Below are positions 1 to 38,611 of a DNA stretch of 38,611 nucleotides, one piece after another. The notes beneath the pieces were generated by a model. The model made no database searches, had not been told where the DNA came from, and saw only the letters and a program-made list of their open reading frames with translations. The position numbers and the translations under genes are program-made. The stretch is from Reclinomonas americana ATCC 50394 (lineage: Eukaryota). Location: contig PS015237.1 of NCBI GenBank assembly GCA_048213135.1, forward strand, positions 11,194 through 49,804. Direction: 5' to 3'. Position 1 is the stretch's first letter, and each line of letters opens with the position of its first letter.

Positions 1-975
1 CTTCCTAACTTCCTCGTGCAACGGTGCAGCGTCGGCGTACTTGCCTTGCGAGGCCAGCGCGGCGGCCAGATGTGAGATGCACGACAGTGTCAGCGGGTGC
101 GACGAGCCGTGAGTCGCGCGGAAGGCCGGAGCGGCCTTTTGCAGCGCCACCTCGGCTTCGGCATGGCGACCGGCAGCCGACAGGCAGCGACCGAGTGCAC
201 AGGCCTCGGCCAGCGTCCGCGGGTGCCCGTATCCCAGGGCCTCAGTGAACATTTCCACCGCATCCTCATGCACCGCGGCGGCGTCGGCAAAGCGCGACTG
301 CGAGTCCAGCAGCGAGCCCAGATTCACCACCATATCCAGGCAGTGTGAGTGCGAGTTGCCGAGCTCCCTTCGCAGGCCCTCCAGCGCCATGCGATACGTG
401 CTCTCGGCCTCGGTCGCCAATCCCTGGCGCTCCAGCGTCTCGGCGACCCATCCATACCTGCACATGCGCAAAGGGTAATAATGAGTGCGCTGGCGACAAT
501 CTCGAGTAGATTGGGGTCAACAACGCAACAGAGTGTAGCGGTCGACCTCGCGCTTGGCAATGGCAGCCGCCTGGCGGAAAATGTCCGCGGCGGCCGCATA
601 GTTTTCGTTTTGCATCTCCTCCCGCCCAAGACTGTACAGGGTGGCGGCGGTCTGCGAGTTGCGACGCTTCTTCTCCGACTTTTTCGAGGTGGTCGACGTG
701 GCCGACGCCACATCGCTGTTGAGGTCGAACTTGATCTCCGAAGAGGGGTGATTCACATGCAGCGCCATCACCGCGGCGTCGACAGAGTGCGACCGCGGCC
801 GTGAGTTGGCCGCCAACATCGCCTCTGTGGGTGGTGGCAGAATCATGCTGGCATGGCTGCTCTTGCGGCTGCCGCCGACTGCGGCCGACTGCCCGGCCTG
901 CGCAGTCGGAAGGGTGTAGGCCGACACCGAGGCCGACACACCCGACTTGTTCGCCTGCGATCCAGTGGCTCCCAT
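1..975 (-). CDS. TPR-repeat protein (kinesin-light-chain/TPR_12-like), 3' end runs off the window
   Basis: ATG at 975 (MGATGS, fits N-myristoylation consensus). Intron 529..458 (GTTGCGT...CAG) joins ...REVDRYTL to YGWVAETLERQG. Repeated motifs LGxxHPxTL and LASQGKYADAAPLHEE. Confidence 0.8.
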
Positions 976-1099
976 GTTTCTCGCTGCAGCAGGGTGGGGG
1001 AGAGAAAACAGATGAGAAAGAAGCGAAAGGAATCACAGGGGATCTGCTCGGAGGAAAAACTAAAAAGACACGATCAACATGGAAGCCACGAGGGCAGAA

Positions 1100-2760
1100 G
1101 GGAATGCGCATCTACAACTGACGTGAGAGAGAAAAGTAAGCAGGGGATTGATTGGCAAAGAGGACAGAGAGAGAGAGAGAGATATTGCAGCGTGGTACTG
1201 TAGAGGAGTTGCAAAGAAGGCGGGCAAGTGGTTCGCACCAGTGCGCAGTGGCGCTGTCGCGCGGAGCAACCGCCGAGTGAGGAAGACAAGATGAACCGGA
1301 AAAAATGAATCACTGATAACCTTCAAATTGAGTCACAAGATGACGTAATGCGATTCAAACTTGCACACACACACCGGAGTGACAGACACAGAGATACAAC
1401 AAGGGGGGTAGGTAGATAGGGAGAGGAGGCGGAGGAAGGATCGTGTGCAAACGCTGTCGCACAGAAAAAGAAAGAAATCGGCAGTTCGAACAAATGAGGC
1501 ATTTACAAAGGAAACCCACGACATCGTCCACAACGCTCCTGCAGCCATACTCAGCGACGTGTGGTCGGCACGCCGAAGAGGAAAAGAGAAGGAGACAGAG
1601 AGAAAGACATGAGACATTCATGAACAGGCAGCAAGTGGTGACACGAGACACATGCAGTCCTCCCGAGAGCGCGAGAGATACAGGAATTCACAGAAGGAAA
1701 AAAGGGAAAAAGCCGAACACCAACCTCTTTGTGCGATGACGACAGCAGCGACAACAACAAGGTAGTGGTGGAAATGCCTCCGCTCAGATGACATAACAAA
1801 TAAAAGCAAAGCACAGGACGAAATGCAGAGAGAGACGGAGCGAAACAGGGGGACGGACGGAAGAATCTGACTTGTGTGTCTTTTCACCAACATATACATG
1901 CCTTTTCACACGCTCCAAACCAGCACGCGGCACTGGTGATGTGGCGGAGGAGGACAGAGAGCGCGAGAGAGTGTGAGAGAGTGAGAGAAGGGAGGCGGTG
2001 CGGAAGAGGCGGCCAACTGAAACACATACATATACATGTGCAAAGTCAACCGACGCGAGAGGAGAATCAAAAAATCATGTGAAATGCTGATGGACTTCCG
2101 AGAGAGACAGACAGACACACACGCGCACAGAGAGAGACACTCGCACTCTCAAAGAAAAATGTATTGCTGGACACAAAGCGCGCGCGCTTCTTGGACACAC
2201 TCACAGACACAGTCACAGACAGACACACACGGAAATAGGAGAATGAAAAGACACACTGCACGTGTATTGAGAGTGCGAGTGAGAGATGTGAAGAGCATGA
2301 TGTCATCAAAGTGCATCAAGACGCCGAGTGTGAGAAGAACACATGGGCGAGAGAGACACGACAAATATGCGCAGATTCATGACTTTTTGACTCTCTTCAA
2401 ACACGCGTGCACACGTGTGTCGCTCACTCTCTCACACGCGCGCACTCTCTGTGTCTCTCACAGTGAGAGAGCTTCTCTGTGTGTGTGATATGGCGAACAA
2501 AAGTCGGCGATGATGGCCGCCAAAGGACACTCTCGCACTTACACAACAGCTCATGGAGAGTGAGGCAGTGAGAGAGATGGAGAGAGTGCTTCTCACTTAC
2601 ACACGCGCAGAGAGACAGAAAGAGAGGTGTGTTGCACGTGGCGGCCAGAAGAACATCTCTCGCACTGTGCCCTCACCTCAGTCACTCGTCCACGCCAGTG
2701 TAACTCGCACACAGACAGTCACACAAAGACAATGAAAAAATCTGCTTTGCGCGTTGTGTA
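1100..2760. repeat. Long intergenic/UTR region rich in imperfect (GA)n and (CA)n microsatellites
   Basis: Many gagaga/acacac tracts (e.g. 1165-1182, 2100-2135, 2420-2490), lower GC, no convincing spliced ORF. Lies between divergently transcribed genes. Confidence 0.6.
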
Positions 2761-2837
2761 AGCTCCGTCCGCGTGAGAAGTAAACAAAACAGGTCTTTTC
2801 CGTCGACTGGCATGGACTGGTGAAACCACGTATCATA

Positions 2838-4896
2838 ATGCGCGTTGTGGCCGCCACTGTGTTGCTGCTTTTGCTGCTGCTCGCGGCATTAGTCTGCGCA
2901 GATGACACTGTCAACCTGCCCGGGTTCCACTTTGTTCCACTTCCGCACGGGTGGATGAATGATCCCAAGTGCGTCTGTCATGCTCTGCTTTCCCGCGCGC
3001 TCTCTCTTCACAGCCAGCCCGCATATTAACGCTCTCTCTCTTTCTTGCTCAGCGGGCCATTCTACGATCCGTCGACGCAGTTGTACCATCTCATGTACCA
3101 GTACTTGACGCCACGCACGTGGGGCCATGCTGTCTCTGTCGACTTGCTGCACTGGAAGCAGCTGCCGATTGCGCTCGTCAACGACGAGTGGTACGACGAG
3201 GGTGGCGTGTTCTCCGGCAGCGCCACTCTCCTCGACGATGGCACTCCCGTGCTCAGCTACTCGGTCTCCACCAATGACATGCAGGTTTGTATTGTTCCGA
3301 TCGATGCATGGGCGACAAGACAGCTGCTCATGTCGCACAAAAAAACAACACAGTGTCTGGCGGCGCCGACCAATCGTTCCGATCCGTACTTGGTGTGGTG
3401 GACGAAGAACGACGAGAATCCGGTGATCTCGACCAAGACCGGGGCGCCGCCGGGTCGCGATGATACCACCGCGTGGAAGAGTGCCGACGGCAAGACGTGG
3501 CGCATGGCGTATGGCTATCAGCCGGATGCCTCCTCCGGCGCCGCCATTGTGTTCACCTCCACCGACTTTCAGACGTGGACCAAGGCCGGCGATTTGCACG
3601 TGTCGCACACCACCGGCATGTGGGAGTGTCCAGGTGAGAAACGCCCAAACGTCCTCTTCATTCATTGCTCTTTCCTCGCGTGTTGGTGAATGGGCAGCGA
3701 GAGTGTCGGAGTTTGCGCGAATAGAGTGGTGATTGAGCTCACTCGCGTTCACAGACTTCTTCCCCATCCCATACGCCTCGTCCAATTCGACGGCGCGCGT
3801 GACGCACCTGCTGAAGGCCTCGACCATGGGCAAGGACTACTGGGTCTCCGGCACCTATGACGACTCGCGCATCGCCTTTACGCCGCACGATGCCGCCACC
3901 GACATGGGCACCCGCACGCAGCTGTACGACGCCGGCGCCTTTTACGCCAGCAAGACCTTCCACGATCCGAGCACGGATCCGCCGAGCCAGGTGCTGTGGG
4001 GTTGGGTGCCGGAGGAGCGCAGCGTGGACGCCAATGGCTCCCCGTACGGCTGGGCCTCGGTCATGTCGCTGCCGCGGCTGGTGGTCCTCGACGACGACGG
4101 CGTGCGCATCCGCACTCCGCCACACCCGCGCCTCTCCACGCTGCGCGTGCAGTCGTCGTACTATCGAATCTCGAACTTGCTGGTGCCTCGCAGCACCGTC
4201 AAGTGGGTGCCGGTGCACGGCGACCAACTGGAGCTGCGCCTGGAGATCGCCCTCACCAGCGGCACTGCCATTGAGTGCGGCATGCTGGTGCGTGCATCGT
4301 CCGACGGGCGGGAACAGACGCTGGTCGGCGTCTCCATGGTCGACACGTCGTACATGAACGCCACCGACCTGCCGGGCCTCGACTACAACGTCACACCCGT
4401 GTCGTACACCGACCCGCGTCTGTGCCAACAGGCCTGCCAGGCCGACTCGCGCTGCGCAGCGTGGACCTACGTGCTGCCAGTGCCCGGACAGGAGCGACGC
4501 TGCTGCCTGAAGAGCGCCGTGCCGGCCGAGGTGTCGGAGAGCTTTTGCGTCTCCGGCATCAAGAATGGCGGCGTGGAGATGAGCGTGTTCGGCGACACCA
4601 CCAAGTCGTCGCTGAACAGCAGCGACGGACATGCATCGTCCGTCGTTCGCTCCCCCCTGCCGCCTCGCACTGGCGGCGGCAGCACCGTGTCGCTGCATGT
4701 GTTTGTCGATCACAGCGTGGTGGAGACGTTCATCAATGAGGGACAGGCGGCCGTCACCCGTCGCGTGTATCCCACTCTGGCCGCGTCCACCGGCGTGGCA
4801 CTTTACGCGGGCGCACAGTCCGACTGCCGCGTTGTCAACTTTGAGTCGTGGGCCGTGGCCAGCGCGCCTGTCACGGTCATGGAGGGGTTCGAGTGA
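2838..4896 (+). CDS. Secreted glycoside hydrolase family 32 (beta-fructofuranosidase/invertase-like) with inserted PAN/apple domain
   Basis: Signal peptide MRVVAATVLLLLLLL. Motifs WMNDPNG (across intron 2969-3052), WGHAVSxDLLHW, FSGSA, GRD, WECPDFF (across intron 3), FYASKTF and DHSVVETF. Three GT-AG introns. Confidence 0.93.
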
Positions 4897-5230: not shown

Positions 5231-7341
5231 ATGCAGCACCATGCAACAAGGCAATCGGGCGCCAACAGCAACAGCAATAACACAGCCTCAGCCGCCACCG
5301 CGGGAGCGTCGAGTGGCACTGACCGCACTAGCACTCGCCGCCGAAGCAGCAGCGGCGCAGGAAGCAACAGTATGCGTGGACGGCCCGGCAGCGGCTACGC
5401 CGTCGTCGACTCCTCCGCCCCCTTCACCCCTGTCGCTGACGCTGCTCTCGATGCTGGTGCTTTCCCCTCCGGAAACACCAAGCTCGCCAACCCTGTGGCA
5501 GCGGGAGCCCGCATGGCATCGCCGCTGGCGCCAGCCGCCAACCGTGGCAATGGAAACCTCCTCACCCACCCCACCCTGGCCAGTGTCGTCGACGTGGCAA
5601 GGTACATTGACCCCTGCTCTCTCTCTCTCTCCCTCTCTCGAGCCACTTTTGGTACTGAACGGCTGTGTCGTGCGGCAGGCTCCAGGAACTTGAATCGGTG
5701 TGCACCTCGAAGGACGCACTGAGTCAGGATCCGCCCGAGGTGTTTGCCTTTGTCGGCTCGCAGCTGGATCGCGCGGCGCATCGCCTCATGGACGCCTACG
5801 ACATGCACGTGCTGCGGTACCCGACTCTGTGGGCGGCCAAGCACATTAACCGACTGCTGCTCATCGATCGCCGGTGGAAGGCCACACGAGAGCATGTGTT
5901 TCGCGAGTTCACCGCCGAGCGCACGCGCTATCTCTTCACGCGCTTCCAACGCCTGCTGTGGTGCCTGGCCTTTATCGAGGACCTGGAACGCACCGTGAAG
6001 GAGATGCGCCAGGTCATGCCTGAGCGACTGACCAACAACCGACGTGCCTACCGTGCCATGTTCACACGCACGCTGGCCTCCGTGACGGCGGCCGCGGGCA
6101 GCAAGAGGATACCCGTCGCCACGCCACCCGTGGTGCCGCCGCTCATGTTCCCTCCACAAGGGCACCACCAGTCTATCGACACGGTGTCGCAGTTGGCCGA
6201 CTACGTGACGCGACCGCTGACCGACCGATCCAATGCGTCCGACGATTCCGAAGAAGAGGGCACGGCGGCTTCCGCGGCGTCTTCTGCTGGAGCGGCCACT
6301 GGCTCCACTCCGACCGCCAGCGCAGGAAAGTCCCCGCGGCCAACCGGCGGCCGGTCGACGACTGCGGCGCCGGCACGGCGGTACAGACCCTGCACCAGCT
6401 TGAGCGCTCGAGCCGAGTCCGAGACGTCTCCACCAACTACCACCACCACCACCTCCACTGCCTCCACCGCTGGCGCCGCTGCAAAGAGCACGCGCAGCGG
6501 CGGCAGCAGCAGCAGCAAGCCAGTGATCGATCCACTGCCCATCAGTGCACGATCCGAGGTTCCCAACAGCACCGCAGAACCGTCGCAACCGCGACGCGGC
6601 CATCGTCGGCGAATGACAGCCGACGGCAGTCGTGAGGCCGACAAGGTGTTCTCACGACAGTCCACCACCAATTCCGCCACCGCCATTGGTCAACGCGCTC
6701 CGCCCGCCGCCTCCGCCGCCGCCGCGGCGCCCACACCACCGACCACTCCGTCGCCTCGGCAGCGTTATGCCATCGCCGCTGCCATTGCCGCCGTTGTTCC
6801 CACTCCCGCTGCAACCACCGCCCCCAGTCACTCCCGGAGTCGGAGTACGTCGAGGGAACCGAGTCCGCGCCAGCTGCCGGCCATTCCCTCCGCCTCGTCG
6901 TCGTCATCGTCATCGCGAGCCAGCAGCAGCCGCCGGTACCGCGCACAGACGATTCCGAATTCGTCGCGATCATCATCAGGTCGCACCAGTGCTACCGCAC
7001 TGCCGATCCAGGCAGCGACGGTGACGGCGGCGGTACTTGCCGCCGCCCACTCACAAGCCGCCCGCAGCGTCACCGGCTCCAGCGTCGACAACCCACGACA
7101 TCGTGTGCCCTCTGCCGGCCTCATTCACGCGCCTGGGCCTCTGCCGCAAACGCGGCGGCCATCGTCCTCGCACGTCAACCGCCGCGCCTCACAGACGCAC
7201 GTCAGCCGCCGCTCCTCGCAGACGCACGTCCGCCACACATCCAAGCACACTGGCTCGTCATCGGCCATTCGGCACATCCACACCAACAGCGTCGCGCACT
7301 CGCGAATGCCCTCAACGGGGCATGCACATCGAGTGGCGTAG
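5231..7341 (+). CDS. Hypothetical protein: helical core of about 140 aa plus long S/T/A/R-rich disordered tail
   Basis: ATG at 5231; one GT-AG intron (5602-5678) joins VDVAR to LQELESV; long open exon to TAG at 7341. No family recognised. Confidence 0.6.
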
Positions 7342-7466: not shown

Positions 7467-9074
7467 ATGCACCGTGGCAGGGAACGGGCACCATCACTGA
7501 TCTCCTCGGTGGACAGCGACAGCAGTGTCTCCCACGACGATGACGACGATGACGCCGAGGAAGACGAGGATGCCTATGTCGATGCGGGTGTCGAGCTGGG
7601 GGACGACGGTGACTACGACGAGGAGGATGCTGATGCAGAGGGCGACGCAGAGGCTGAGCGGCGGCAACGACAGCGGAGAGAAGGCGGTCGACCTCGACGC
7701 GCCACCTCGGATTCCTCATCGTCGGGGTACGCTGACGAGGCCGCCTTTCGCGCCTACTGGAGACGACGAGAGGCAGCAGCTGTGGCTGCTGCACGCGAGG
7801 CACAGCTGAGAGGGAAGGATGAGGGAGGCGGCGGTCTGTTGGGTGGCGGGTCACGGGTGTCGTTGAATGGAACGCAGTTGCGCAGTCGCTCGTCGTCGCG
7901 TCGACGCAGGCGGTCGTCGACGTCGCAGTATCCGCGGCGACTGTGCACTGTGTGGTTTATCTTTGTGGTGGTTGGCATGGTGCTGTGTGCGGCCGGTGCG
8001 GCGGTGGCACTTGCCGTGTTTCTCATTCCGGATGTGATGCGAGTTGAGTCGCGTCTCTCTCTCACCACATGTGCGTGTGTGTCTGTGACGGCTCATTGCC
8101 TCTGCACGAACCACAACACAGTATCAAGACTACATAGAGTCGACGTGCACGGTCACAGCCAGCGCGGTGCAAGACACCAATGGTGTCTTTGCGGCCGTGT
8201 TCACAGTTGCGTCCCTCACACACGCTTGCATGCATTGTTCGGCAGCTCATGCTGGCGCTGGCGGTGCAGGTTGACTACAGCGTCGGCAGCCATGTGACTG
8301 ACGCGCAGTACAAGCACGCCACGGGCGACGACAAGCTGGCGGCCGAGGACTACACGAAGCGGTTTGTGATTGGTCACAAGTACAAGTGCTGGTGGGATGT
8401 GCATGACGAGCACTCGGGTGAGTGTGTCTCTCCGCAGTGGTTTGGCGGGCGAGCTCGAGTATCTCATTCGCTCGTACCGTGTAGTGGTGTTCGACACGGG
8501 CTTCCAGCAGTACACGATTGTGTTTTCGGCCGTGCCCATTGTGTTGCGCCTCTCTCGTTTTCCCCCTTGTCGACACACGTGGTTGCTGAACATATATATG
8601 TCACCACCGCGCAGCGTGTTTGTGGCGCTCTTCGTGTTTGTCATGTTTGTGCTGCGGCGACGGAAGCGACGGTACGGCAAGGCATGCACTCCGTGCTGTC
8701 ACGACGTTCCACGGTATCGCGGGCGACTGCTGTTGCGTACGAACCGTCGCGGCAACCATTGTGGTGCGCCCTGCACTCGAGCTCACCGCGCGCCGCACGC
8801 AGGAGTTATGGCACGTCGTCGACCACCACGCAGCCGTCATTACCGGGACCGATTGAGCCGCCACTCATGGCGGCACCGGAGAACCGCTTTGTGCCATTAA
8901 CGTTGCGTCTCAACTCACTGCTGTGCCACGAGCGTTGCGGCCTCACTTCGCCTGTGCCGATACTGCAGCACCGATGCGGACACCGACTTTGATCCGAACC
9001 GCACACTGCCGCTGCAAGGGCTCGCCGGTCCACCACCACGCACAGCGTCTGTCCTTCGTGGACCTTATCTATGA
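7467..9074 (+). CDS. Two-pass membrane protein with Cys-containing loop (BK-beta/DUF3592-like topology, tentative)
   Basis: Acidic N-terminus, TM1 (VWFIFVVVGMVLCAAGAAVALAVFLIP), loop YIESTCTV...KYKCWWD...VVF, TM2 (IVFSAVPIVVFVALFVFVMFVL) followed by RRRKRR. Six introns, four with GTTGCG/GTTGAG donors. Confidence 0.6.
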
Positions 9075-9189: not shown

Positions 9190-11532
9190 ATGGTGAAGAC
9201 AGTGGAGCGCATGCTCGCACGAAAGGAGAAGAAGGAGGAGAAGTCGCGCAAGAAGAAGCCGGCCAAAGAGGTGATGCATGCATGCATGCACCAACACTGC
9301 CACCTCGCTGTCTCTCTCTGTCTCTGTGCATGCTTCTGCACGTTGGGTGCTCTCACACGACAGTCACCACCTCCACTCACACGTGGCACTGGCGGGGGAG
9401 AGAGAGGGCACGCAGTGTGGCCATGGCTGTGCATGCCTTTCACTCACTCTCTCACTGCCTCTCTGTTGGTCAGACCACTCGTGGACAGCGCATTCTCAGT
9501 GCACTGGCCATCCTCAGTGTGGCCATTGGCATTGGCTTGATTCTCGGTCGCTTCGGCAACACACGTTGAGTGTGATCAGTGCATGGTTGTGCATTGCAGA
9601 GAGCTGATCCTTCTCCTTCTCCTCCGCCACCCACGCAGCCAAGTACAAGGTCGAGCAGGAGCAAGAGATTCGCTTCGATCAGGTGTTTCCCTATCTGGAG
9701 GAGGCCGTGGAGACCATTGACAGCGTTGCGTGCCACTTGTCGTCAGTTTGCATCTCACTCATCGCACGCGCTCATTCATCGCCGCCGGGATGCAGGTGAT
9801 TCGCAAGGAGACTGGCGATGCAGAGGACACGGCGTGGGAGATCAACTATGGCGGCGACAAGGACGTGCAGCGTTTCTTCAACAAGGCGATGCAGAGTCCG
9901 AGTGACACGGTGCGCGGCCTGTCGCAGACGTTGATCGATGTGATGGCGCAGGCCACGGTGCGCACGCTGGTGCAGTGCATTGTGAGCACCAAGTCCGACA
10001 AGGTCAAGGCCGCCGCCTCCATTGGTCTCAAGTCGAAGCTCATCACCGGCAAGGATCAGCTGCCGGATCGCGGTGTGGGCATTGTGGCGGAGATGGCGGC
10101 GCACACAGATGCCGGCGTGCAGGAGTTGATGGCGTACACGTTCCGTCAGATGATCTACGACGACTATGAGCGCGAGATCAAGGACGCGGCCGACAAGCCG
10201 TCGCCGTCGGTGCTGCGAGTGATTGAGTTGACCAATCACCACTCGCTGCTGGTGCAAGAGGTCGCCAAGCGCGTGCTCCACGACCTCGTTCAATGTTGCG
10301 CCCGTGATGGTCTCCGTTCGTTGGGAAGTTTGCAGCAGCACTCACACTCAGTCACACACATTCACGCAGCCGAGACGAAGCACCAGCGATTCGCCATGTA
10401 CCTGACGTCGGAGAACGAGAAGCTGCGCAAGGAGGCGGAGCGCGTGCTGTACACGGTGGTGCGCAAGATGGCCGACGACGGCAATGAGCTCGATGCACAT
10501 GAGCTGATGGCGGTGCCGGAGACGGGCACGGTGGCGGCCAAGGCCATTGCCGACTCGTACATGTCGACGGAGAACTTGAAGAAGGTGAGAGAGTGTGCTG
10601 ACTGGCTGGATGGATGGAGGGAGTGTCTCGTGTGCTGACCTGCCGTGGTGCAGGATGGTGGTCTGGAGCGCATCGTCGAATTCAGCGACTCACCGCTGCC
10701 GATGGCACAAGAGCTGGCGGCTTCCGTGGCCTTCCATCTTTTCAATGGCAAGCTCGAGGAGCACGTGTCCGCTGCCGATGCGCTCAACCGCATTGTCAAG
10801 CTGCTCGATCCGCCAGCTCCCGAGCACGTGCAGAAGCAGGCCAAGGCCACCATCTACAAGGCTCTTCGTCGTGCGTTGCTCCCGCACATTCACCATTGTC
10901 CCTGTTGAGAGTTGGTCTCGCTGACGCGCGTGTGTGCAGTGGGCGGCAAAATTGGTCAAATCCAGCTGTCCAACGTGCTGGCACAGCATCCGGATCCGCG
11001 CGTCCGTCTCATCGAAGACGCCTGGCGGTACGCCATCATCAAGCGCTTTGAGGAGGCACCGGCGGCTGTGGTGGCCGAAGTGCTGAAGCATACACCGTCG
11101 GCGAAGATTAAGGAGCTGGAGAAGACCTTTGCGCCGTCGGAGGAGGAGCTGAAAGAGTGGGCCCAGCAGAACGGTGGCGACACCGCGGCGGCGGCGGCGG
11201 CATTCGGTCAGTCGCAGGCCAACACTGCGGCGGCGGGGGCAGCCTCGGCGTACGACGACGTCGAGGAGATTGAGGAGATCGACGAGCCGGCGGCTGCCGC
11301 CAATCGTGAGGAGGCGGAGGAGGAGCAGGAACAGGAGGAGGAGGAAGAGGAGGATGCTGGCTACAGGGGTCATGCGGGCGAGGGCGACGATGACAACGCG
11401 GCGGCGGCTGAGGATAAAAACGACGAGTACCAACCCATGGACCAGGAGGATGAGGATGAGGAGTCCGGAGAAGGGGATGACGGCGATGCGGGTGAAATAG
11501 TGGTCGGTGGCGACGACGATGACGACGAGTAA
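9190..11532 (+). CDS. Signal-anchored helical-repeat (ARM/HEAT-like) protein with acidic C-terminal tail
   Basis: Basic N-terminus, one TM segment (ILSALAILSVAIGIGLILG), amphipathic helical repeats (e.g. GGLERIVEFSDS), D/E-rich tail. Six introns join in frame to TAA. Confidence 0.65.
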
Positions 11533-25278: not shown

Positions 25279-28200
25279 ATGTCGGCCTCGTCCCTCCCGC
25301 TGCAACGCAAGTCGTCCATGCCAGCTTCACAACTCGCCGCTGCCGCCGCCGCCGCCTCTGCAGCAGCAACAACCACCACCACAACCACACGGCGACCTCT
25401 GCGCAGACAGGCCAGTGATCGCTCACTCGGCGAGGGCAGTCTCGCAGGCAGCAGTGGCTCGGTGGTGATCAAGCGCGTCTCCATGGACTTGCCCGAGGCC
25501 GAGATGGTGTCGACTCCGACGTCGTCGGATGGACTGACGCCGACGGGAGGCGGGCCGGTGACGCCCTTTGATGATGCCGAGTATCAGCAGGCGATGCGAC
25601 TGATGGGGCGGCGCCGCTCGTCGCTGACGGCGTTGCCGCTGAATGGACTGCCGGTGAGCCTGTTGGTGTCGTCGGTGGCGTCGGTGTTGCCCAAGGACGC
25701 GGGGAAGACGGCCGCGGAGATGCAACAGCAGTCATGTTGCGGCTGTTGAAGAGAGTATCTCTCTTGGTATTCTGTCTCGTGACCAACATCTGTGCGCAGC
25801 GCATCATCGGACGACGCGTTCGTTGACGGTGTTTGGCTCGTCGTCGTCGACGACGCGGTCGCCACGGACGTCGCCCAGATCGACGCCGCGTACGACTCCC
25901 AAGTCGACGCCGCGCGCCTCGCCCGTGTCGAGTCCGCGCAGTTCACCGGTGAATGTGTCGCCGTTCTCGCCGGCGCGCATGTTGCGTGTGAGGGGTGTCT
26001 TGTCTCTCTTGTTTATTAGCCTTTGTGTGACATTGCGTGTCAGTGTGGACTCGACGGCGGCTCCACCAGTGCCGTCGTTCGCGGCCGATCTGGTGTGCAC
26101 TCTGCGTGGTCACACGGCTGCGGTGACGTCGCTCAGCTGGCACCCGCGGGAACTGTGTCTGGCCAGTGGCTCCAAGGATTGTTCGGTGCGCCACTGGGAT
26201 CTGTCGATGATGTCGTCCGCGGTGCCGAGTCAGGTGGTGGGCGAGCACGCCGACGCTGTAGATTCGGTCGAATTCTCCGCGGTCGACGGCATGTGCATCA
26301 TGGTGCGCCTGTGTCACTCGCGTTACGTACGTGCACACCACGCTGTGCTGACTGCTGTTGCTGCTGTTGTTGCAGTCGAGTTCTGGCGACAAGGTGGTGA
26401 AAATGTGGAGCGGAGTCGGCAGCCTGACACCGTCCGTCACCGTGCTGCCGGATCTCGGGCAACTGGCGACACTGGCCCCAAATGGCGACCTCGTGGCCGC
26501 CCGTGGTGCCAACCAGGAGAGCAGCACCATCCGTCTGTACAAGACCAGTGCCGGCGGCAAGAACGTGGGCTCGCTCCGTGGACACACACGCGGTGTGCTG
26601 CACTTGGCGTTTTCGCCCAGCGGCCAGCAGCTGCTCTCCGTGTCCTCTGACAACACTGGTCGTCTGTGGAGCGTGGCGCAGCGCACTTGTGTGCATGTGC
26701 TGGAGGGACACACCAACTGGGTGTGGTGAGTGAGCCGTGTTCTTGATCACACACAGGGTGGTTATCATTCTCACCGTGGAACTCATGTCACAGGGGCGGT
26801 TGCTTCTCCCCCATGGGAACCCGCGTCGCGACCTCGTCGGGTGACAAGTCGATTCGATTGTTGCGTGGATGGGAGGAGAACAGCACTTGCTTCGTGGTTT
26901 GTGCTTTCCGTTCTCACTCGGACGTGATATTGCAGGTGGGACACGGTGACTGGCGCCTGTGACATGGTTCTTCTGGGTCACGATGCGGCAGTGCGCGACG
27001 TCCGCTGGGATCCGATCGGGCCGTACTTGCTCACCAGCTGTTGCGTCCGTGGTGTTCTTGTTTGCTGTGTCGATTCACTCACCTTTCCCCCTCCACACAG
27101 CCGACGATTCCACGTTGCGCTCTCACCGCACATTAGATCTCCTGCCTCTGCTCACTCGCTCACCACTTCTACACAGTGTGCGCATCTGGCACTCCGAGTC
27201 TGGAGTGTGTCTGACCTTTGTCTCGGCGGTGGACTCCAGCATATCGGCCGTCGCCTGGGCCGACGACGGCATTCACTTTGCCATGGCGAGCGCGAAACAC
27301 ATTGGCGTGTTTGAGATTGATGCTGCTCGAGTGACGGCGCAGGGAGTGCCGACACCCGAGGTGCGTGTCGACGATTGCGGCTCATGTTTGGTGGTGGAGT
27401 TCGACACGTCGTCGCTGCCGCCGCGAGCTTCGGTGCGACTGGTGGTGCAGCGAGAGCGAGCATCTGGGTCACCGGCGCCGGATATCGGTACGAATTCTTC
27501 ATTTCTCCACTCCTTGATATCGGATCTCTGACTGATTGACGCACACCAGTGTTGGAGCCGCAAGAGTTTGTGCCGCTGAGCGGTCACGGTCGCTTTGGAT
27601 GCTTCGTGGCGGTGCCCGAGGAAGGCTCCGTGCGTCTCCGACTGGAGGCCCGCGGTCGCCCCAAGCACCGTGCTTCCGACATTGATCAGTCGCTCTTCTC
27701 TCCGTCGCCGTCTGTCGCCTCGCCCACCAATGACGAACCGTGGTCGGAGGGGCAGTGGGTCCATGCGACTGTCCGTGCAGGTACGCGCACCTGTGTTTGC
27801 TTCGGTGTTTGTGAACGCACGATGCTGAAGGAGATGCTTTCTCGTGATCAGGGTACTTGCACCTGCGCGCGCGTGCAGTCAGTCCTTTCAGCGTTTCAGT
27901 GAGCTGGAACAGCGATGCGTTCCGCTCCATTACACGTCGCGCACCGTGGGTGAACGAGTGCAGACGAGTGCCCACGGCATTGCCACTTGAGGACTCCCGA
28001 TTGTTGCGCACCTCGCATGCAGTGTGCGCTCTGTTCACAACAAACAAAACTGACTTTCTTTCGGTGTGTGTGTATGCACAGATCGTGCAAAGTCATCAGT
28101 ATGCGAGACGAGGCCGTTGTGTTCCATCAGCACGATGTGCGTCCATTCACTGACTCCATCACGGCGTCACGACTGCTGCCGGGCACTCGGTACCGCGTGG

Positions 28201-29610
28201 AACTCGGCCTTGCGGGTTGCACGCGACCGGCGGAGGTCGTCACTGTCGACACGCCCGAGCTGCCGGCACCCTCCGAGTCGCCGCTGGCCGAGTGTGCGGC
28301 TCTGATGGAGAAGGTTGGTTGCGAGAGATGCCGTGTCACAGGCGACCGTCTTCTTTTTGTTGATGGCATGTGTAGATTTCATCCTGGATGACGCCGCTCT
28401 CTGGCGGCAGTGTCTCCGCACTCCACTCGTATCGCACCCGTCGCCGAAGCAGGTAGCGTACTGCTCATCTGTCGCACCTTTTATTGGCGCGTGCTGTTCA
28501 CTCACTTCCACGCAGTGCGTCGACGCAACTGAAGCGCATGGCCACCAAGGACGCTCCCGACGGTCCCACTGACGCCGGTGCCTCGGATGCCGATGCTGCC
28601 GCAACGGCCAACACTCGCGATGTGGCGCGTATGATTCTCACCCGCACACACAGTGTGGCCGACGAGTGCGACTCGCGGTTGGCCGAGGGTCTGCTGAACC
28701 ACAAGGGCACGGCGGAGATTGGCGGCGAGTTCGCCGACCTTCTGTCTGCCAACCTCGGCGACCTGTCGCAACAAGCCGTGGCGGCGGGGCAAGCGCTGAC
28801 CGCTGTGGCGGCCACGGAGGATGGCGTGCAATACGTGACACCGGCCACCGCGGCGGCCTGCGCACGCAGTCGATTGCGTGCGTCGGGCGCAGCATGTGCG
28901 CTGTCCGTTGAGCCGTGGGAGGCACGGCGCTCGGATCGCGACATGCCGGTCGCCTGGCAGGATGTGCAGGGCAAGTGCAGACAGCTGTCGGAGGTGGCAC
29001 ACGAAGCCGCGCAGCAATTGGCACAGTCGCTTGCGAATCTGCACACCCAGGTGTCGGAGGTCCGCCGCACCAGCACCACCCGACGAGAGCAGCTCGAGGC
29101 TGAACTGGCGCGCATCCAGCGAGAGCTGGAGACCGAGACCATCAAGGTCAGACGCAGTTGCTCGCGACTCTGTGTTATTTTTCTCGTTCCCTTATTCCTT
29201 TCGACTCTTGTGACAGCTCAAGTACGCCGACGGTCTCGACGCCATCCTCAGCAGCCATCAGAAGCGGGTCGACGGACAAGTCGACGCGCTGGCGAACCGT
29301 GCTGCAACTCTCCGCACTGCTGCCCAGATGCCCGAGGTTTGCCTCGCCCACCCACTTGTCTGTTCTTTCCCCCTTTTTATTGCTGACCGCGTCGTCCACG
29401 CAGTGGTTCTGCGCTCGCCTCAGCACCCTCAGCGACGAATGCCTTCGCTTGTGGAACCAGTGGAAATCCAACGAACAAACCACGCTGCTCCCGCAACACG
29501 CCTCCTCTCTCCTACAAGCACTAGACTCCGCCGATTCCACCACAGGCGCCGACACGGACGCACTTCGGGCAGAACTTCGTTTGGTCGCGTCCCGAGGGAC
29601 AAACTCATGA
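25279..29610 (+). CDS. WD40-repeat + FN3-like + coiled-coil protein (paralog 1)
   Basis: S/P-rich N-terminus; repeated LxGH...SxSxDxxxRxW units; FN3-like VSWN...LLPGTRYRVEL; heptad-rich C-terminus. About 14 introns including a 13-nt microexon. Confidence 0.85.
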
Positions 29611-29682
29611 ATGAACCCCATTGTCCACTCGCGAGCAATTCGGATATCTTGAGATTACACACACAAACAGAGCGCGACAGAG

Positions 29683-32600
29683 ATGAGGCGCCGCGCAGTG
29701 TCACTGGCAGTCACACTGCTGCTGCTGCTCATCTGTGTGGGTGCACTGGTGTCTGGTGAGTGCCACACGGACACACGTGCGTGTGAGTGTTGCCACTCAC
29801 CCTCTTGCACGCGCGCAGTGGCAAACGCGAAAAAGTCAAAGAAGGCGCCCTTATCCTCCAACAAGCTGGATGTGGCCGCACGTCAGCACGAGCAGGTGAA
29901 GCGCGCACAGGCCGAGCTTGACGCAGAGAGGGCCAAGTCGGGCAAGAAGCAGAAGAAGGCGGTGTTGGGTCCGGCGGCTCCGGAGGCCGACGAGGCCGAT
30001 GATCCAGCGCGACAGGAGGCCGAGGACCGGCTGAGAGACTTTGGAGCGGAGCATCGTATGCACAATCCGCAGCCGTCGCCTCTGGTGCCGCGTGGGAAGA
30101 ACGAGGGCGACGATGAGATGCCGAATCGCAACCCGAATACCCCGGAGGATGGCATTGTGCCGCACAAGCAGTTGCGACAAAGAAAGAGGCTGAGCGTTTC
30201 GTTGCTGTTGTTGTGCAGTTTCGTGACGCATGTGTTTTTTGTAGTGTGCGTCGCTCGCTGCTGGACTATGTGGAGCGCAAGATGGCGTTTGATCGCTCCG
30301 GTTGCGCCTTCCCTGGCGAGCAGCGTCTGTGCATTGGTCGTATTACCGAGTACTACCAGCAGGTTTGTGCCTGTGTCTGTGTGCGCGCGCGCAGCAATGT
30401 CTTGCTTGTACTGAGAAAGAAGTGATTTTCCTTTGTGTTTCTCTCCAGGTGGTCTCCGGTATCATGCACTACCTGACGGTGGAGATGGGAGGCGAGCTTC
30501 TGGAGGTGCAGATCCACGAGCACCCGGCCAGTGAGCAGGCTGAAAAGTGCGCTGGCTTGCTGCTGATTCGTGTCACTTGGTGGTCGCCGAGGCCTGATTG
30601 CTTGTCGCAGGCATCACATGCAGTCGATTGACATTCCGCCGCGCCAGCAATTCTACGAGCTGATCAGTGTGGCGCGCCCTGGTCAGGACCCGCCACCGAC
30701 TGGCTTCTTTGATCCGTCGGCACCGCGCCTGCCGGAGAAGCAGAATGGTCCCAGCGAGCCGCCGGCCACTGTGCCTGGCGGTGTGCCGACCACCACCCCT
30801 CCGCCCGGCTCCGCACCAACCATGGCTCGCCTGCGCCGTGAGGTGCACGGCTGCATGCTGGCGTTTGATCGCGCTCGCGAGGCACAGGCTTGCCGTCGCC
30901 GCAAGCTGTACGTGGCCGAGAACGTGAACCTGACACGTTTCTCCAACATGCCCGCCGCACTCAATCCCGCCTCGGCGCTGACCACTGCCGCCACTGCGCT
31001 GGCGGAGACCTCATCTGCCGAGGCCGCCTCGCGTATTGTCTCGCAGGAGCAGCTGCTGCAGCTCAGCACAAAAGTGCTGCCGTCGTCGTTCTCGTGGGTG
31101 CCGGCACTGAAGAAGCTCAACTGCCACTGGATCATGAACCAGAAGGGCTGCGGCTCCAGCTGGGCTTTTGCCGCCGCCACCGTGCTCAGCACTGGCATGT
31201 GTGTGCGCACCAAGGTCGGTGGAGCTGTGTGTGTGGGCACGAAAGGGGAGTTTTCACTCACACCTCTCCCTTCACCAACAGGGCGCCGTGCGTCAAGTGG
31301 TGTCGCCTCAAGATATCGTGTCGTGCACCTCTCCCGCCGGCTGCAGCGGTGGCTCTGCCTGGGAGGTGTTCCAGCGCATGGACCCCGGTGCCGGCAGCAA
31401 GGATCATCCGTGGAAGGCACGTACTCCAGGTGTTTTCTTGTCTTTCTTTCGCGTGGCGGTTGATCTGACTGCTGTTGTGCAACAAATCACAGACACTTGC
31501 CGCTCAGTGCCACCCCTACTCGGCTCGCGACGCCGCACAGGGCGACACGTGCGAAAACATCAATCGCAAGGGCGTATGCGAGCAGCCGCGGTTGTACGGT
31601 TCGTGTTGTGAAGATACGTTGGTGCTGGCCGGTGAAACTCACAGAAGGAGCGCGCAGGTGGCACACACCCGGTGATGATGGAGAAGATCCGCGATGGTCA
31701 CCCAGAGGATGCCATGCACTTGCGTGCACTCATCTGGCACTGGGGACCACTGGCGGTGCGCTTTGACGTGTTCGAGGACCTGCTTACTGTTGCGTCGCGC
31801 GGCATCACACACATGATGGGAGTGTCGGTACTCACTGGCAAATCATCCCGCAGTATGAGAAGGGCATCTACCGCCCGACCACCGACAAGCGCGTGGGACC
31901 CCATGTGCGTCGCACTTGGAGATTTCCTTGCACTGAGAGAACTTGAGTTGTTGACGTGCCCCTGTTGCGCAGGCTGCTGTTATTCTCGGATGGGGCATTG
32001 ACGCCGATGAGACACCGTTCTGGATCCTGCAAAACTCTTGGTGTGTATTGTCGGGTGGATGTGCTTGGTTGTGTGTGGTGGTAGTGGTGCTCAACAAGAA
32101 CCGCGACTGCAGGGGCAAGCACTTTGGTGAGGAGGGCATTTTCCGCATCGAGCGCACCATCGAGACGGAGACGATGCTCAACCTGCGCCACTTTGCGTGC
32201 GTTCTTCGTGCCTCACCGTGTCATCAACGTCCACAAATTGTGCACTGACAGTGATCACGCGCAGTACCATTGAACAAAGCTGGACGCCGACGTGCCCGAG
32301 CGAGTGCCGCAACGGCTACCAGGATTCCAAGTGCAAGTGCTTCTGCCAGCTGGGTTTCACCGGCGAGAATTGCGATGGTTTGCTGTTGCATGTTGTGTGT
32401 GTGGTCTGCTTGCTTGGCTCTCCACCATTCACTGACGTGGCGCGCCCTCCTACGCAGTGTGCTCGCTGCAATGCGAAAACAATGGCACACTTCAGCAAGA
32501 CTCGTGCAAGTGCAAGTGCCCGATTGGTTTCCGCGGACGCAGCTGCCAACAAGGTCAGTCTTACATGCAGCTTTGCCCATGTGGTGCCGCGCCCTCACAC

Positions 32601-33631: not shown

Positions 33632-36600
33632 ATGGGCGACAGCGAGAAGGTGGCCTGCCTCCCACTTCACTCTGCTCACCACTTTCTCTTCACTCACTTT
33701 GCACGTCTTCTTCTCTCCTCTCTCACATACGCAGCCGGCCTCCGCTCGATTCGCGGTTCCCGCGCTGCCGACCTCACGCGCGGCCTCCAACGCCCATGCG
33801 CGCTCTCGCTCTGCTCCCTCGTCAGCGCGCGATCGCCCACGCGCCTCAGTGCCCTCTGTGGGAACAGCAGCAGCAGCAGCAGCCGCGGCAGCCGCAGGTC
33901 GCCCTCGTCGCTCTCCAGTGGCCAGTGGATCACGATCGTCACGAACTCCTCCACTGACCACCAGCCCCGGGCGCAGCGCCAAGGCACACGATCGCACGTC
34001 ACCTGCACGCACACCGTCGCCACCGCGGCCGACTATCACGTGCGTGCTGAATCTGCAGAAGAGTGCGCTGCTGCACCCACCGATCATTGATTTTTCGATG
34101 TGTGATACACACCGCAGTCGCGACTGTCGAGGCATGCTGCCGCAGCCGGTGTGCAGCATGCGCCTGGTGCAGACGCTGCAGGGACATGGTGATTCGGTCA
34201 CTGCGGTGGCGTGGCATCCGGCGCAGGCCAACGTGCTGATCAGTGGCGGGAGAGACAACTCGATGCGCGTGTGGAATGTGGCGGAGGCGTCGAGTCGGGT
34301 GCTGGGCGATCACGCGGCGCCAGTGGATCCTGTGCAGTTCTCAGGCGACGGTGCCGTGCTCGTGTCGGTGGAGGCCAAGACGCAGACTGTGAAGGTGGGA
34401 TGGTGATTGTGATTGATGGTGGAAACAAAGTTCAGCGTCTTTACGTTGTGTTTGCGCTTGCAGTTCTGGGACACAGAGGGCTCCATGTGCACGCGCGCAT
34501 TCACTGACAATGGTATGTCGGCCGCCGTGTCACCCTCCGGTCAAGTGTACGTTTCGTCGGAGATGGACGGGTGCATTCGCGTGCGAAACTTTGCCACGTC
34601 GCCCACGGGCGGCAAGGTGGTGGCGACGCTGCGTGGTCACACTCGCGGCCTACTACGCATGCGCTTCTCACCGAGTGGCACGCGCCTCTTGTCGGCTTCG
34701 TCCGACAACACGGCGCGTGTGTGGCTCATGCAGAGCCGAGTGTGTCAACATGGTGAGAGAACACAGTGTGCGTGAGGAGCGAGTCAGTGCAGAACCGCTG
34801 ACTTTTCGTGTTGCGTGCAGTGCTGGAGGGCCATACGCAGTGGGTGTGGGGTGCTGCGTGGTCACCGTCGGGTCTGCGCATCGCGACCTCGTCTGGCGAC
34901 CAGTCGATCCGGCTGTGGGACGCGGTGAGCGCGTGCTGTTCGACCGTACTCTTCAGCTACATGGCGTGCTCAATCGTCTCGCACAGGTGTCTGGCGCGTG
35001 CGAGTTTGTGCTACTCGGTCACACGGCCGCCATTCGTTTCGTAGAGTTTTCTCCCAGCGGAGAACACGTGTTGTCGAGCTGTTGCGTCCCGCGTGTTCTC
35101 GACTGCGTGTTGCCACTCTCACCTGCGCTCACCACGAATACCGATTCGCGCAGCCGACGATCACAGCTTGCGCCTGTGGTCGGCCGACACGGGTGAGTAC
35201 GTGGCACACATTGGTGGTCTGTGCACGAGCATTTCGTGGAGCCCGGCGGGGAATCGGTTCGCGGCGGCAACCGAGTGCGACATTTCCGTGTTTCAAGTGG
35301 ACGGTGCCCGAGGTCCGTCGCCCCTCGCCTCACCTCCAGAGATCATCTCTCTGCCTCTCTTTCTCAAGGCCGTACTTCCCAACTGCAGTGTCGGTGGATG
35401 CGGTGCCTGTGCTGCGGCAAGTCCGTGGCACCGATCAGTGCGGACAGTTTGTTGTGCTGGAGTGGAATCAAGCGAGTTTGCCGGCTGGCGCCGAACTGCG
35501 ACTGGTGCACCAGTTCCGCCACTATTCTCCTGGTGCGAGCACGCGTGCATCATGTGGTGTCCACGGCTTCCGCTCACCTCTCATCTCACTCTTACCTCGC
35601 GCTCATAGCACCGCTGCCGGTCGTGTTCCTCCCAACTGGGCAATCGGGGTGGTTTGGCTGTGTGGTGTCGGTCGTCGGTGACGGCGTGCATCGCTTCCGG
35701 TTGGAGGCGCGTCGTACGTCAGCGTCCTCGTCAGCGGCGGCTGCTGCAGCAGCAGCAAACGGTAGGGCGCCACCATTCACGACAGTGGACGCAACCTCCT
35801 CCAGCAACACTGGCCTCTCGTTCACCAGCGACGACGACGACACCGCCCATGGCTCGTTTACCCCCATTGAAAGCCTCATGACAGAGGCTTCCACCGTATC
35901 CACGGACAAGCATGACGATAGTGTGGGCGATGGTGCTGGCATCGGCGAGGACAGCGAAGACATGCTCACGTGGGTTCCAGGCCAGTGGCTCGACGTGGAG
36001 TGCCACACGTGTTGCGTCGCCCGCTGCCAACTGCACCCTCATGCGCTAGCTGTCCACCTACCGCCTTGTGCACAGCATTCCTGACTCTGGAGGCGCGCTC
36101 TGTGACGAGTTTTGGTGCGCTGATCACGTGGGACACGGCGGTGTTTCGTGTGCTGCCCAACGTGTGCCCGTGGCTCTTTGATGCGGAAACAGGCGAGCCG
36201 CTGGAGACGTGGTGCCCGCACACGACTTGCCATGTCGACTGCCGCGTGCTCAGTCTGCCGGATCGTGCCGTGATTCAGACGCTGAACGATGTGGCGTCGT
36301 CGGCGGGGCGCTTCGAGGTGGACCACTTGCTGCCCGATTACGGTACGCACGGAAACGCATTCGAGGTGCTTCATGTTCTGACTCCTGGTGTGTGTGTGTG
36401 TATGCTCGTGTGCAGAGTATCGTGCAGAGGTGCGCCTCGCCGGTGTGCACGGCGTCGTGCCCGACGTGGTGGTCTTCCGCACCACGGCCTTGCCGGAGAG
36501 CGATCTCGCGCAGCTGCCGCCAGTCACCGAACGTGCACGATCTGTTATTCGTGCCATGGCCCCACTGGTGGAGCATGCCAACTTGCCAATGTCGCCCTCG

Positions 36601-37197
36601 CCACTGGGAGTTGCGGCACTGTCGCCACGGCCACCACCTGCAGCAATGATCCGCGACCAACTGGCGGAGCTGGATACGTTGGCGACGCAGCAGGCGCCGA
36701 CCGCCGATCTCTGTCGGCGTCTGCTCCAGCGCAGCGAAAGTGCCACCGTGCAATTGCCACCGTCGTCAGCCGACGCAAGCGCTCGCGTGGTGGAGCTGGC
36801 GGTGGAGCACTGCCGACGAGTGCGCGACCACGATGAAGATCTGCACCTCGAAGCCTGGTCGCAGCTCGAGCACGCCGCGCGAGCCGACGCCGCCGCTGCT
36901 GCAGCCGCCGCTCAGAGCCTACAGGCCGACAGTGTGACCGAGCTCGCCAAGGACATCAACGCGGCGCGTCGAGCCGCCGAGGTGCACCGCGACTTTCTGC
37001 AGCGCGAAATCAGCCGCCTCGATCGCCAGCTGCTGTACATGGACGCCCTGGAGAGACTAATCGCCAGTCAGAGTGCGGATCGGACCTCGCGGCAGCAAGC
37101 TGTGCTGCAGGAACGGGCACAGGCGCTCGAGGAAGTGGCTGCGTGCGCCGCCGACTGTAGACACATTGTCGAAGGCGAAGGCGGGGACCGTGAATGA
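33632..37197 (+). CDS. WD40-repeat + FN3-like + coiled-coil protein (paralog 2)
   Basis: Collinear with paralog 1 (GGKxVxxLRGHTRG, LSxSSDNTxR, LEGHTxWVWG, ATSSGDxSIRLWD, GxFGCxV, GQW, LLPxxxYRxE). About 10 introns; start ATG inferred. Confidence 0.83.
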
Positions 37198-37531
37198 ACT
37201 GATCGCAATTTCATCTTGGATAACACGAGGCGCAGGTGAGAGGATACGCTGCGATCTGTGCGTGGCATGCATGTGTGTGTGCGCGCGTCGGTTTGCGTTG
37301 TGTTTGGCGTGCGTGTGCAGGAGTGCGAGATGGCACACACGCACAAGACATGGTTGTCTGCCTCACTCTCTTCCTCGCCCTTTCTCACACGCACGCACAC
37401 ACCCTCGCCTTCTGCCTGCGCTCGCTCTCTCCTTCACACTCGTGTGGGGCAGTGGTGGATGCGAGTGAGCATTTCTGTGTATGTGTGTGTGTGTTCTGTG
37501 GTCTAATGACGAATTTGATGATGATGCAGGG

Positions 37532-38611
37532 ATGAGCAGTCGCAGCAGTAGCGCAGGCAGTGCGTCGACCATGGATGGCAGTGGCGCAGTTGTCGCCAAT
37601 GCGGAGGCTGCGGGAGCTGCCGCGCGTGTGCCAGCCACCAACGGAGCCGCTGCCGGAGGCAATGACAGCAGCGCCGATGAGGCACATGCGAGTGCGAGTG
37701 CAGGAGGAGGAGGGCAGGGAGCGGGTGGCAGTGCACCGGTGATGCTGGCGCAGGCGGTGCAGCAGGCACCGGGTGCACACTCGTCAACAGCCATGTTCTC
37801 GTCGGTGGCGAGGGCGGCGTCGCCGCTGGAGGATCCGCTGTTTGGTCGCGCGCATGAGTTGGAGTTGATTGCGCAAAAGGCCGAGGTGGCGGCCGCCAGT
37901 GGAAAGCCGTTTGTGTTGGTGTTGAGGTGCGTGCGTGTGTGTGTGTGTGTATGGGTGTGTCTTGCTCGTGTGCATGGTGATGTTATTTTCACACTTTGCT
38001 GCAGTGCACCGGGTGGCTTTGGTAAGACCAAGCTGGCGTATGCAGCGTGGAACATCCTGCTGCAGTGGTTCACAGGGCCAAAGCTGTGGGCGCGTCTTCG
38101 TGGCCAGCATCACTTGCGAGTTTCGTCACCATTGCCGCGTGTCTGTCTGTGCACTCGGTTGTGTGAGAGTGACGAATGTCCTTCGCTCGCCATCAGATGG
38201 ATGGCATCCTGACCGAGCTTCTCATGTCCTACGACTCCAAGTCCACCGACACGCTGAAGAAGTCAATGGAGCAGAAGATGAGCATGTACAGAGAGTTGCG
38301 TCGTGTCTCGTCGTGTGCTGTCATTTCCCCTCGTGTGTGGTGGTCGTTGACACGCTGGGTGAACTTTGCAGACTGGTGAGCAAGAAGGGGCTGGTGCTTC
38401 TCGACCACGTGCATCAGCTGTCGGCAATCGACGAACTCGTCCGGGCACCCGACGCCAACTCGGCGTTCCTGGTGACCACGCGCGAGGATGTGTCGGAGAT
38501 TCACGTGGTGGACATGGTGCGTCACTTTTGTGTTCTATTGCGCGCGCGCGCGTGTGTGTGTGTGTGGAGAGAGTGCTCACGCATGCATCGCAGGAGGCCT
38601 TGGTGATCCCG
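37532..38611 (+). CDS. NB-ARC/STAND-type P-loop NTPase, 3' truncated by window end
   Basis: LFGRAHEL, Walker A VLSAPGGFGKTKLA, Walker B GLVLLDHV, and sensor-1 FLVTTRE after removing three introns. Confidence 0.8.

Follow-up and report, generated by a model that had tools for sequence, protein, structure and literature searches.

Genes and predicted introns of the window

The window, by which we mean the whole stretch of 38,611 nucleotides analyzed here (Reclinomonas americana ATCC 50394, GenBank assembly GCA_048213135.1, contig PS015237.1, forward-strand positions 11,194 to 49,804), carries about 17 genes that are divided into very short exons by introns of about 70 nucleotides. It has a G+C content of about 60% and four N gaps, and because third codon positions are 70–86% G+C, its reading frames are easy to score. 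Our subject is a class of 5' splice sites (donors) in these genes that read GTTGCGT or a close variant of it, and which we call shifted: the exon-intron cut lies at the first GT, and the rest of the donor consensus lies one base further in than at the canonical GTNNGT donors of the same genes. As judged from the DNA sequence, the class exists, comprises about one third of the introns, and is used where the exon offers no final G. An original prediction, made by hand-splicing the window, had listed 33 such donors. All 33 begin with GTT and have G at +6, and most are followed 55–80 nucleotides downstream by a CTCAC- or CTGAC-like motif and a CAG.

The motif itself is enriched. There are 25 matches to GTTGCGT, where 9.58 ± 2.90 were expected, and none of 100 shuffles reached 25; GTGCGT, at 66 against 51.2 expected, is barely enriched, as three of 100 shuffles reached that count. 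Nineteen of the 25 GTTGCGT copies are donors in the curated intron set described below, two are non-donors in the sense orientation, and four are antisense; the corresponding numbers of donors are 9 of 66 for GTGCGT and 7 of 43 for GTGAGT. One GTTGCGT copy, at 25179 (+), lies in the spacer between the stop codon of a protein kinase gene (24905) and the next start codon (25279), and could be the donor of an intron in a 5' untranslated region.

Genes were parsed without regard to the donor class by dynamic programming, scoring codon usage, GT and AG, intron length and 3' signals, with no donor motif beyond GT (the donor-agnostic parse). GTT[GAT][CAT]G began 17 of its 81 introns, compared to 84 of 2392 (3.5%) sense-strand GTs (binomial p = 2.8e-9), the motif thus being commoner at donors than in the background, as had been proposed. 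Sixteen of the 17 are also in the curated list. With the narrower motif GTTG[CA]G, the count was 16 of 81 against a background of 2.0% (p = 4.9e-12), and GTNNGT was found at 16 introns against a background of 9.8%.

Later rounds of parsing rewarded both donor forms and recovered short exons, and the final round used a donor position weight matrix for each class (the PWM parse). Early parses merged genes and gave false long introns; introns above 130 nucleotides were not counted because they are mostly bridged spacers. The curated set is therefore the PWM-parse introns of up to 130 nucleotides (10 longer ones of 110 were dropped) plus seven hand corrections. It contains 106 introns, of which 35 (33%) are shifted and 71 are not. 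Thirty-one of the 33 donors listed earlier were recovered in the independently parsed set, and the remaining two, 28003 and 13300, are consistent with the reading frame. The earlier estimate of about one third has held up. Two donors were added to the list, 8206, which is good, and 21274, which is weak.

The base counts at the 35 shifted sites (G at +4 in 32, C at +5 in 31, G at +6 in all 35, and T at +7 in 26) correspond to those at canonical positions +3 to +6, in agreement with the original description of the shifted donor as the co-existing GTNNGT consensus with one added T. The two classes do not differ in length, CAG ends, or branch-like motifs. The median intron length is 70 for shifted and 69 for other introns, and the 3' end is CAG in 33 of 35 and 65 of 71, respectively; all 35 shifted introns start with GT (by definition) and end with AG, counting 13300 with an acceptor at 13226. 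A branch-like CT[CGA]A[CT] motif is present 5–45 nucleotides from the 3' end in 28 of the 35 shifted introns and in 52 of the other 71, compared to 19.6% of random 40-mers, although the two intron rates are somewhat inflated because the parser rewarded this motif.

The shifted-donor introns are listed here with the last exon base in lower case, a slash at the predicted cut, and the source of each call; "both parses" denotes the donor-agnostic and PWM parses, and "late parses" the later-round and PWM parses.

458–529 (−): t/GTTGCGT, TPR gene; both parses
8043–8121 (+): a/GTTGAGT; both parses
8206–8269 (+): a/GTTGCGT; late parses; acceptor uncertain, 8245 or 8269
8543–8614 (+): t/GTTGCGC; donor from the donor-agnostic parse, acceptor from the late parses
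8732–8802 (+): t/GTTGCGT; listed in the original prediction and added by hand, the parse having skipped a low-scoring exon
8902–8968 (+): c/GTTGCGT; late parses
9565–9638 (+): c/GTTGAGT; both parses
9725–9795 (+): c/GTTGCGT; both parses
10295–10369 (+): t/GTTGCGC; both parses
11628–11690 (−): c/GTTGCGT, last junction of the MRS2-like gene; both parses, acceptor set by hand
11748–11821 (−): t/GTTGCGT, MRS2-like gene; both parses; four of five homologue alignments gapless, the fifth with a two-residue gap
11953–12019 (−): c/GTTGCGC, MRS2-like gene; late parses; five of five alignments gapless, just before the GMN-motif helix
12159–12228 (−): c/GTTTCGT, MRS2-like gene; PWM parse; gapless against homologues P0038 and P0031
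12302–12360 (−): g/GTTGCGT, the only one after an exon-final G; PWM parse; in a variable protein loop where homology is uninformative
12529–12588 (−): c/GTTGCGT, MRS2-like gene; PWM parse; gapless against P0038
13226–13300 (−): a/GTTGCGA, MRS2-like gene, adjoining an N gap; listed in the original prediction; open frame on both sides, phase 0
16911–16986 (+): a/GTTGCGC, cyclic-nucleotide-gated channel gene; both parses
18104–18168 (+): a/GTTGCGT, channel gene; both parses and homologue alignments
21274–21345 (+): t/GTTGTGT, possible but weak, in a GT repeat with three in-frame alternatives; PWM parse
22043–22098 (+): c/GTTACGT; PWM parse
22561–22620 (+): a/GTTGCGT; PWM parse; in-frame GTGCGC alternative nine nucleotides downstream
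24142–24215 (+): c/GTTGCGT, protein kinase gene; spliced by hand, joining the pre-loop helix to H-x-N-x-I-I-H-R-D without an indel
24256–24312 (+): a/GTTGTGT, protein kinase gene, splitting an Asn codon; hand splice and PWM parse
25736–25799 (+): t/GTTGCGG; late parses; the donor-agnostic parse used a GT five nucleotides upstream
25981–26043 (+): t/GTTGCGT; late parses
26860–26935 (+): t/GTTGCGT, WD40 gene A; both parses; gapless in paralogue B
27040–27100 (+): t/GTTGCGT, WD40 gene A; both parses; matches 35081 in gene B
27114–27176 (+): c/GTTGCGC, WD40 gene A, after a 13-nucleotide exon; both parses; gapless in paralogue B
28003–28081 (+): t/GTTGCGC, WD40 gene A; listed in the original prediction, the parse having stopped short of it in this gene; open frame and a loose match to paralogue B
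30171–30244 (+): a/GTTGCGA, ending in TAG; both parses
31789–31853 (+): t/GTTGCGT, papain-family protease gene; both parses
35081–35153 (+): t/GTTGCGT, WD40 gene B; PWM parse; matches 27040 in gene A
36011–36075 (+): t/GTTGCGT, WD40 gene B; both parses
38120–38196 (+): a/GTTTCGT; late parses
38295–38371 (+): a/GTTGCGT; late parses; the donor-agnostic parse used an in-frame GT nine nucleotides upstream

The four N gaps are at 12737–13187, 13784–13986, 18901–19438, and 20282–20301. Three of them lie within the MRS2-like and channel genes, and part of the introns and exons of these genes is therefore missing from the count. Shifted donors are distributed unevenly among the genes: they make up seven of the 10 counted introns of the MRS2-like gene (11628–14100 (−)), or eight of 11 with 13300, none of seven in the adjacent enoyl-CoA hydratase-like gene (14589–15868 (+)), two of 16 in the protease gene, and five of seven in a small membrane-protein gene.

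Database searches returned distant relatives. The closest proteins in large collections are only 26–46% identical, and the lineage is therefore poorly sampled. The best match to a channel exon was at 28% identity, that to an exon of the GH32 gene at 46% and from a metagenome, and a protein search with the first MRS2-like exon gave no match; a metagenome scan found relatives at only 23–27%, and a protein-atlas look-up returned generic ion-channel clusters only. Six of 10 single short exons had no Pfam match. The exon upstream of the 13300 intron is MRS2-like by Pfam (E = 1e-17), and a later exon of the protease gene has a weak Pfam match (E = 0.11); the exons flanking the 31789 intron presumably encode the stretch of a papain-family protease before the catalytic His. 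The GH32 gene (2955–4896 (+)) is fructosidase-like and has a PAN/Apple-like cysteine-rich segment at its C-terminal end; PF00251, PF08244, and PF14295 are also combined in its best matches, all of which are metagenome proteins of at most 46% identity.

Position of the cut

The cut is predicted to fall directly before the first GT of the shifted donors. Eleven of the 35 junctions are fixed by gapless homologue or paralogue alignments or by the kinase catalytic loop, and the rest by open frame and codon usage only. In the kinase gene, splicing at 24142 and 24256 gives a catalytic-loop motif that reads through without an indel; 24256 splits the codon of the invariant catalytic-loop Asn, and the next exon begins at position 129 of the Pkinase profile. 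A cut one base later, compensated by a moved acceptor, was rejected because this invariant Asn would be replaced. The original prediction had relied on conserved residues such as these to place the cut at the GT, and alignments of the channel, MRS2-like, and WD40 genes now concur. At channel donor 18104 (residue 510), four of four alignments, to P0001 (two domains), P0002, and P0003, are gapless. In the MRS2-like gene, gapless alignments were obtained at 12019 (five of five), 11821 (four of five), 12228 (two), and 12588 (the one that reaches it).

WD40 genes A (25279–28400 (+)) and B (34134–37197 (+)) are paralogues with a C-terminal, beta-rich part, and are 41% identical over 399 residues. 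Where gene A has introns 26860 and 27114, the exon of gene B is uninterrupted and the two genes align without gaps. Since paralogue B (35154 onward) is uninterrupted at the position of 27114, this intron was either gained in one copy or lost from the other. Donors 27040 in A and 35081 in B occupy the same position and phase, and both are shifted. The first 20 or so bases of these two introns are also similar, more so than would be expected at such protein divergence. The exon between the shifted-donor introns 27040–27100 and 27114–27176 is only 13 nucleotides long (27101–27113 (+)).

It might be argued that the class is an artefact of splicing by eye or by our parser, the true donors being canonical GTs nearby or the motif being enriched for a cause other than splicing. 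Some parser junctions were indeed misplaced, and nine of the 35 shifted sites have an in-frame GTNNG alternative between −18 and +26; the original prediction had warned that 22561 might be placed differently, and an in-frame donor does lie at +9 there. The other 26 sites have no such alternative, and nearby canonical donors were therefore rejected as the true sites. In addition, homology fixes the cut at 11 junctions, the class emerges from the donor-agnostic parse, and GTTGCGT is at intron starts in 19 of 25 cases and antisense in only four. An artefact is thus largely refuted, and we judge it very improbable.

Several genes have runs of shifted introns, as might be expected if these were introner-like copies of one mobile element with a GTTGCGT end. 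However, an all-against-all BLASTN comparison of 104 introns yielded only 13 pairs at E ≤ 0.01, each matching over 13–19 nucleotides and none pairing two shifted introns, and the introns differ beyond their first seven bases. For this window, an introner origin is refuted and we give it almost no credence. Introns and spacers frequently contain short runs of (CT)n, (GT)n, and (CA)n (e.g., 5602–5678, 16911–16986, and 37927–38004), and judging by position, they seem to be the source of the short matches between introns.

The exon-end rule and its possible readers

The occurrence of the shifted form is strongly linked to the end of the exon. An exon-final G precedes one of the 35 shifted donors (12360) compared to 52 of the 71 others (Fisher p = 9.8e-13), just as the original prediction had it, with 12360 the single exception; in a parse given no information on position −1, the count at shifted donors was none of 25. 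Conversely, the 53 introns that follow an exon-final G are canonical in 52 cases and shifted in one, whereas the 53 that do not are shifted in 34 cases and canonical in 19. The base preceding a shifted donor (A10 C10 G1 T14) resembles canonical position −2 (A28 C13 G11 T19) and not −1. The core, too, is strongest and most uniform at the shifted sites: GCG is found at 26 of 33 shifted sites but at 15 of 71 canonical ones (p = 2.8e-8), and GAG at two of 33 shifted sites. Canonical sites lacking the exon G are likewise rich in GCG (7 of 19, against 8 of 52 with it). A GCG-rich core at shifted and G-less canonical sites is as expected if the missing pair is compensated. Intron phases are distributed 7/9/14 for shifted and 28/27/15 for other introns (p = 0.035), and the excess of shifted introns in phase 2 fits the fact that the last exon base is then a second codon position, which is rarely free to be G.

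Among the canonical donors, +3 and +4 are nearly free, and G+5 is kept in 64 of 71. They include a subgroup of the form G/GTTTGT or G/GTTCGT that always follows an exon-final G (e.g., 3285, 20679, 30363, 33009, 23659, and 31599, all (+)).

The reading we prefer, and in which we place about as much belief as doubt, is that these are ordinary GT-AG introns read one base shifted, with the G of the intron taking the place of the exon's last G. The signal seen in early recognition would then be seven bases long, G-(G or U)-U-G-C-G-U, and be read in one register only, its first G being the last exon base at ordinary sites and the first intron base at shifted sites. At the latter, U+2 would face the position to which G+1 is normally paired, and the core, UGCGU, would be displaced inward by one base. 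Catalysis would cut before the first GU at both types of site, and the active site would therefore have to make room for one more base separating the cut from the core that is paired with U6. The extra U would cost a pair only where the exon supplies a G, hence the avoidance of exon-final G, and the shifted form would be selected only where the coding sequence forbids that base. The register model also explains why the base before the donor has a −2-like preference and why a strong core is required. An easy evolutionary path would be available, as a single-T indel within the intron would turn N/GTGCGT into N/GTTGCGT and leave the frame untouched.

In a different pairing, G+1 and U+2 would pair normally with U1 small nuclear RNA (snRNA), with the additional U, at +3 (or +2), looped out. 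The GU would then stay where catalysis normally finds it, and such a bulged register has been validated experimentally in human cells for some GUU sites, as PMC4856993 reports. A bulge, however, predicts that an exon-final G should be favored as it is at canonical sites (52 of 71), and it was found at one of 35; moreover, a bulge costs energy and brings no gain over N/GUGCGU, yet the GUU form is the commoner (34 against 19). We therefore consider bulging of the extra U improbable.

The standard U1 5' end is ACUUACCUG, and the standard U6 box is ACAGAGA. Possible pairings were evaluated with a nearest-neighbor duplex model, using the human-type U1 5' end as printed in PMC4856993, which may not be that of this organism. 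Several observations weigh against the single-register account. With the human-type U1, no register gave a stable duplex for N/GUUGCGU (+0.5 to −1.4 kcal/mol). This U1 pairs better with N/GUGCGU (−1.2 kcal/mol) and N/GUGAGU (−5.6 kcal/mol); pair counting therefore leaves the excess of shifted over canonical sites (34 versus 19) without an exon G unexplained. G before shifted donors, at 3% compared to 15% at canonical −2, is also scarcer than the analogy predicts. In addition, all 106 introns are predictions from DNA sequence alone in one 38.6-kb window, and the counts rest on our own parser, whose last round held donor matrices for both classes; it misplaced some junctions, and seven introns were fixed by hand. 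The single-register account, the simplest, is most likely; it is incomplete, as is the bulge model.

Since stable pairing was not obtained with the 5' end of a human-type U1, the recognition machinery of this lineage probably differs somewhere, whether the change lies in U1 itself or a second U1 or affects the U6, U5, or protein stage. For a constructed U1 with GC at positions 5–6 and A at position 8, the model gave −10.3 to −11.8 kcal/mol when paired to the shifted site, and −9.0 kcal/mol for CAG/GUGCGU. The G/C at positions 5–6 of such a molecule would account for the GCG core, and with A at position 8 its best partner would be the shifted site.

This leads to a further alternative, a dedicated or altered snRNA: a U1 5' end complementary to GUUGCGU (for example, with A for C at position 8 and G/C for the two pseudouridines), present as a second U1 or together with a matching change in U6 or another partner, such that there would be two signals and not two registers. 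The modeled energies favor it, being about 0 for the human-type end, and the preference for GCG over GAG (26 versus 2 of 33) is the reverse of that of human-type U1. There are precedents as well: expressed variant U1 genes exist in humans (PMC3561869 and PMC10870369), and a coevolved snRNA has been reported in Entamoeba (bioRxiv 10.1101/2022.06.08.495308). On the other hand, the modeled U1 variants are our own constructs, full exon pairing would predict a preference for A before the donor that is not clearly present, and Rfam at gathering thresholds matched no family in the window, so no snRNA gene was seen there. On balance, we think an altered snRNA unlikely. The mechanistic part of the original prediction, which offered a variant U1 or U6, bulge tolerance, or altered U1C, LUC7, Prp8, or U6 modification, is plausible.

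A broader proposal, to which we give somewhat more weight than to an altered snRNA by itself and still hold only tentatively, is that two matched donor dialects exist side by side and are chosen by the last exon base. This would operate through re-tuned machinery, either a GUUGCGU-complementary U1 (or second U1) or a change at the U6/Prp8 stage by which the paired core may lie one base further from the cut. If it is true, a shifted 5' splice site would here, for the first time in any organism, be a standard signal under selection and not a tolerated exception.

Comparison with known systems

It is still debated how, within the spliceosome, the 5' splice site passes from U1 to U5 and U6 and how the cut is fixed to the nucleotide. 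For work on the shifted and bulged registers, mammals provide only a few dozen unusual sites, besides minigenes. An organism with a third of its introns shifted would offer hundreds to thousands of natural test cases with a clean exon-not-G rule. The class also yields a direct prediction for the U1 and U6 sequences of the organism, and in such genomes a third of the junctions would be misplaced by gene finders that use one donor matrix. Our literature search, which did not extend to donor logos in supplements or subscription journals, found no paper on a lineage with a major shifted donor class.

U12-type introns, with the donor motif [AG]TATCCTT, are also a second class of 5' splice site that co-exists with the first. 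This identity was rejected for the shifted introns, as their donors lack the motif and their 3' ends, lengths, and branch-like motifs are those of the other introns.

A shifted (+1) register of U1 base-pairing was reportedly described at atypical human 5' splice sites by Roca and Krainer in 2009. The original prediction named INPP4A and GTF2H1 as mammalian examples. The likeness to the shifted donors of the window is close: GU at +1 and +2 is followed by U, the consensus is displaced by one base, the cut is at the GU, and the exon lacks a final G. However, the human register is a rare exception with an AAGU core, whereas here 35 of 106 introns are involved, the core is GCGU, and the register is a prediction.

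Both shifted and bulged registers have been proven in human cells, and genome-wide prediction gave 68 human sites for a +2/+3 bulge and 51 for a +3 bulge, according to PMC4856993; these numbers agree with the original prediction that such sites are rare in mammals. The human bulge registers (Roca et al. 2012, as cited, and Tan et al. 2016, PMC4856993) resemble the shifted donors in their GUU start and in a consensus that begins one base in, but the human sites keep the exon-final G that those of the window avoid (1 of 35).

In Entamoeba, as described in bioRxiv 10.1101/2022.06.08.495308, there is likewise a lineage-wide departure from the consensus for which a change in the machinery is proposed. 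That case concerns one transformed consensus in an intron-poor genome, whereas here two forms co-exist in intron-dense DNA.

Finally, 5' splice sites have been viewed as two types, AG//GUNNN on the one hand and NN//GURAG on the other (PMC11732430), and the window has the same see-saw between exon end and core, with variable cores at sites that have the exon G and strong GCG cores at sites that do not. The published classes share their spacing from the cut. New here are the additional base, a U, that separates cut and core at most sites of the intron-strong class, and the status of this class as a major one.

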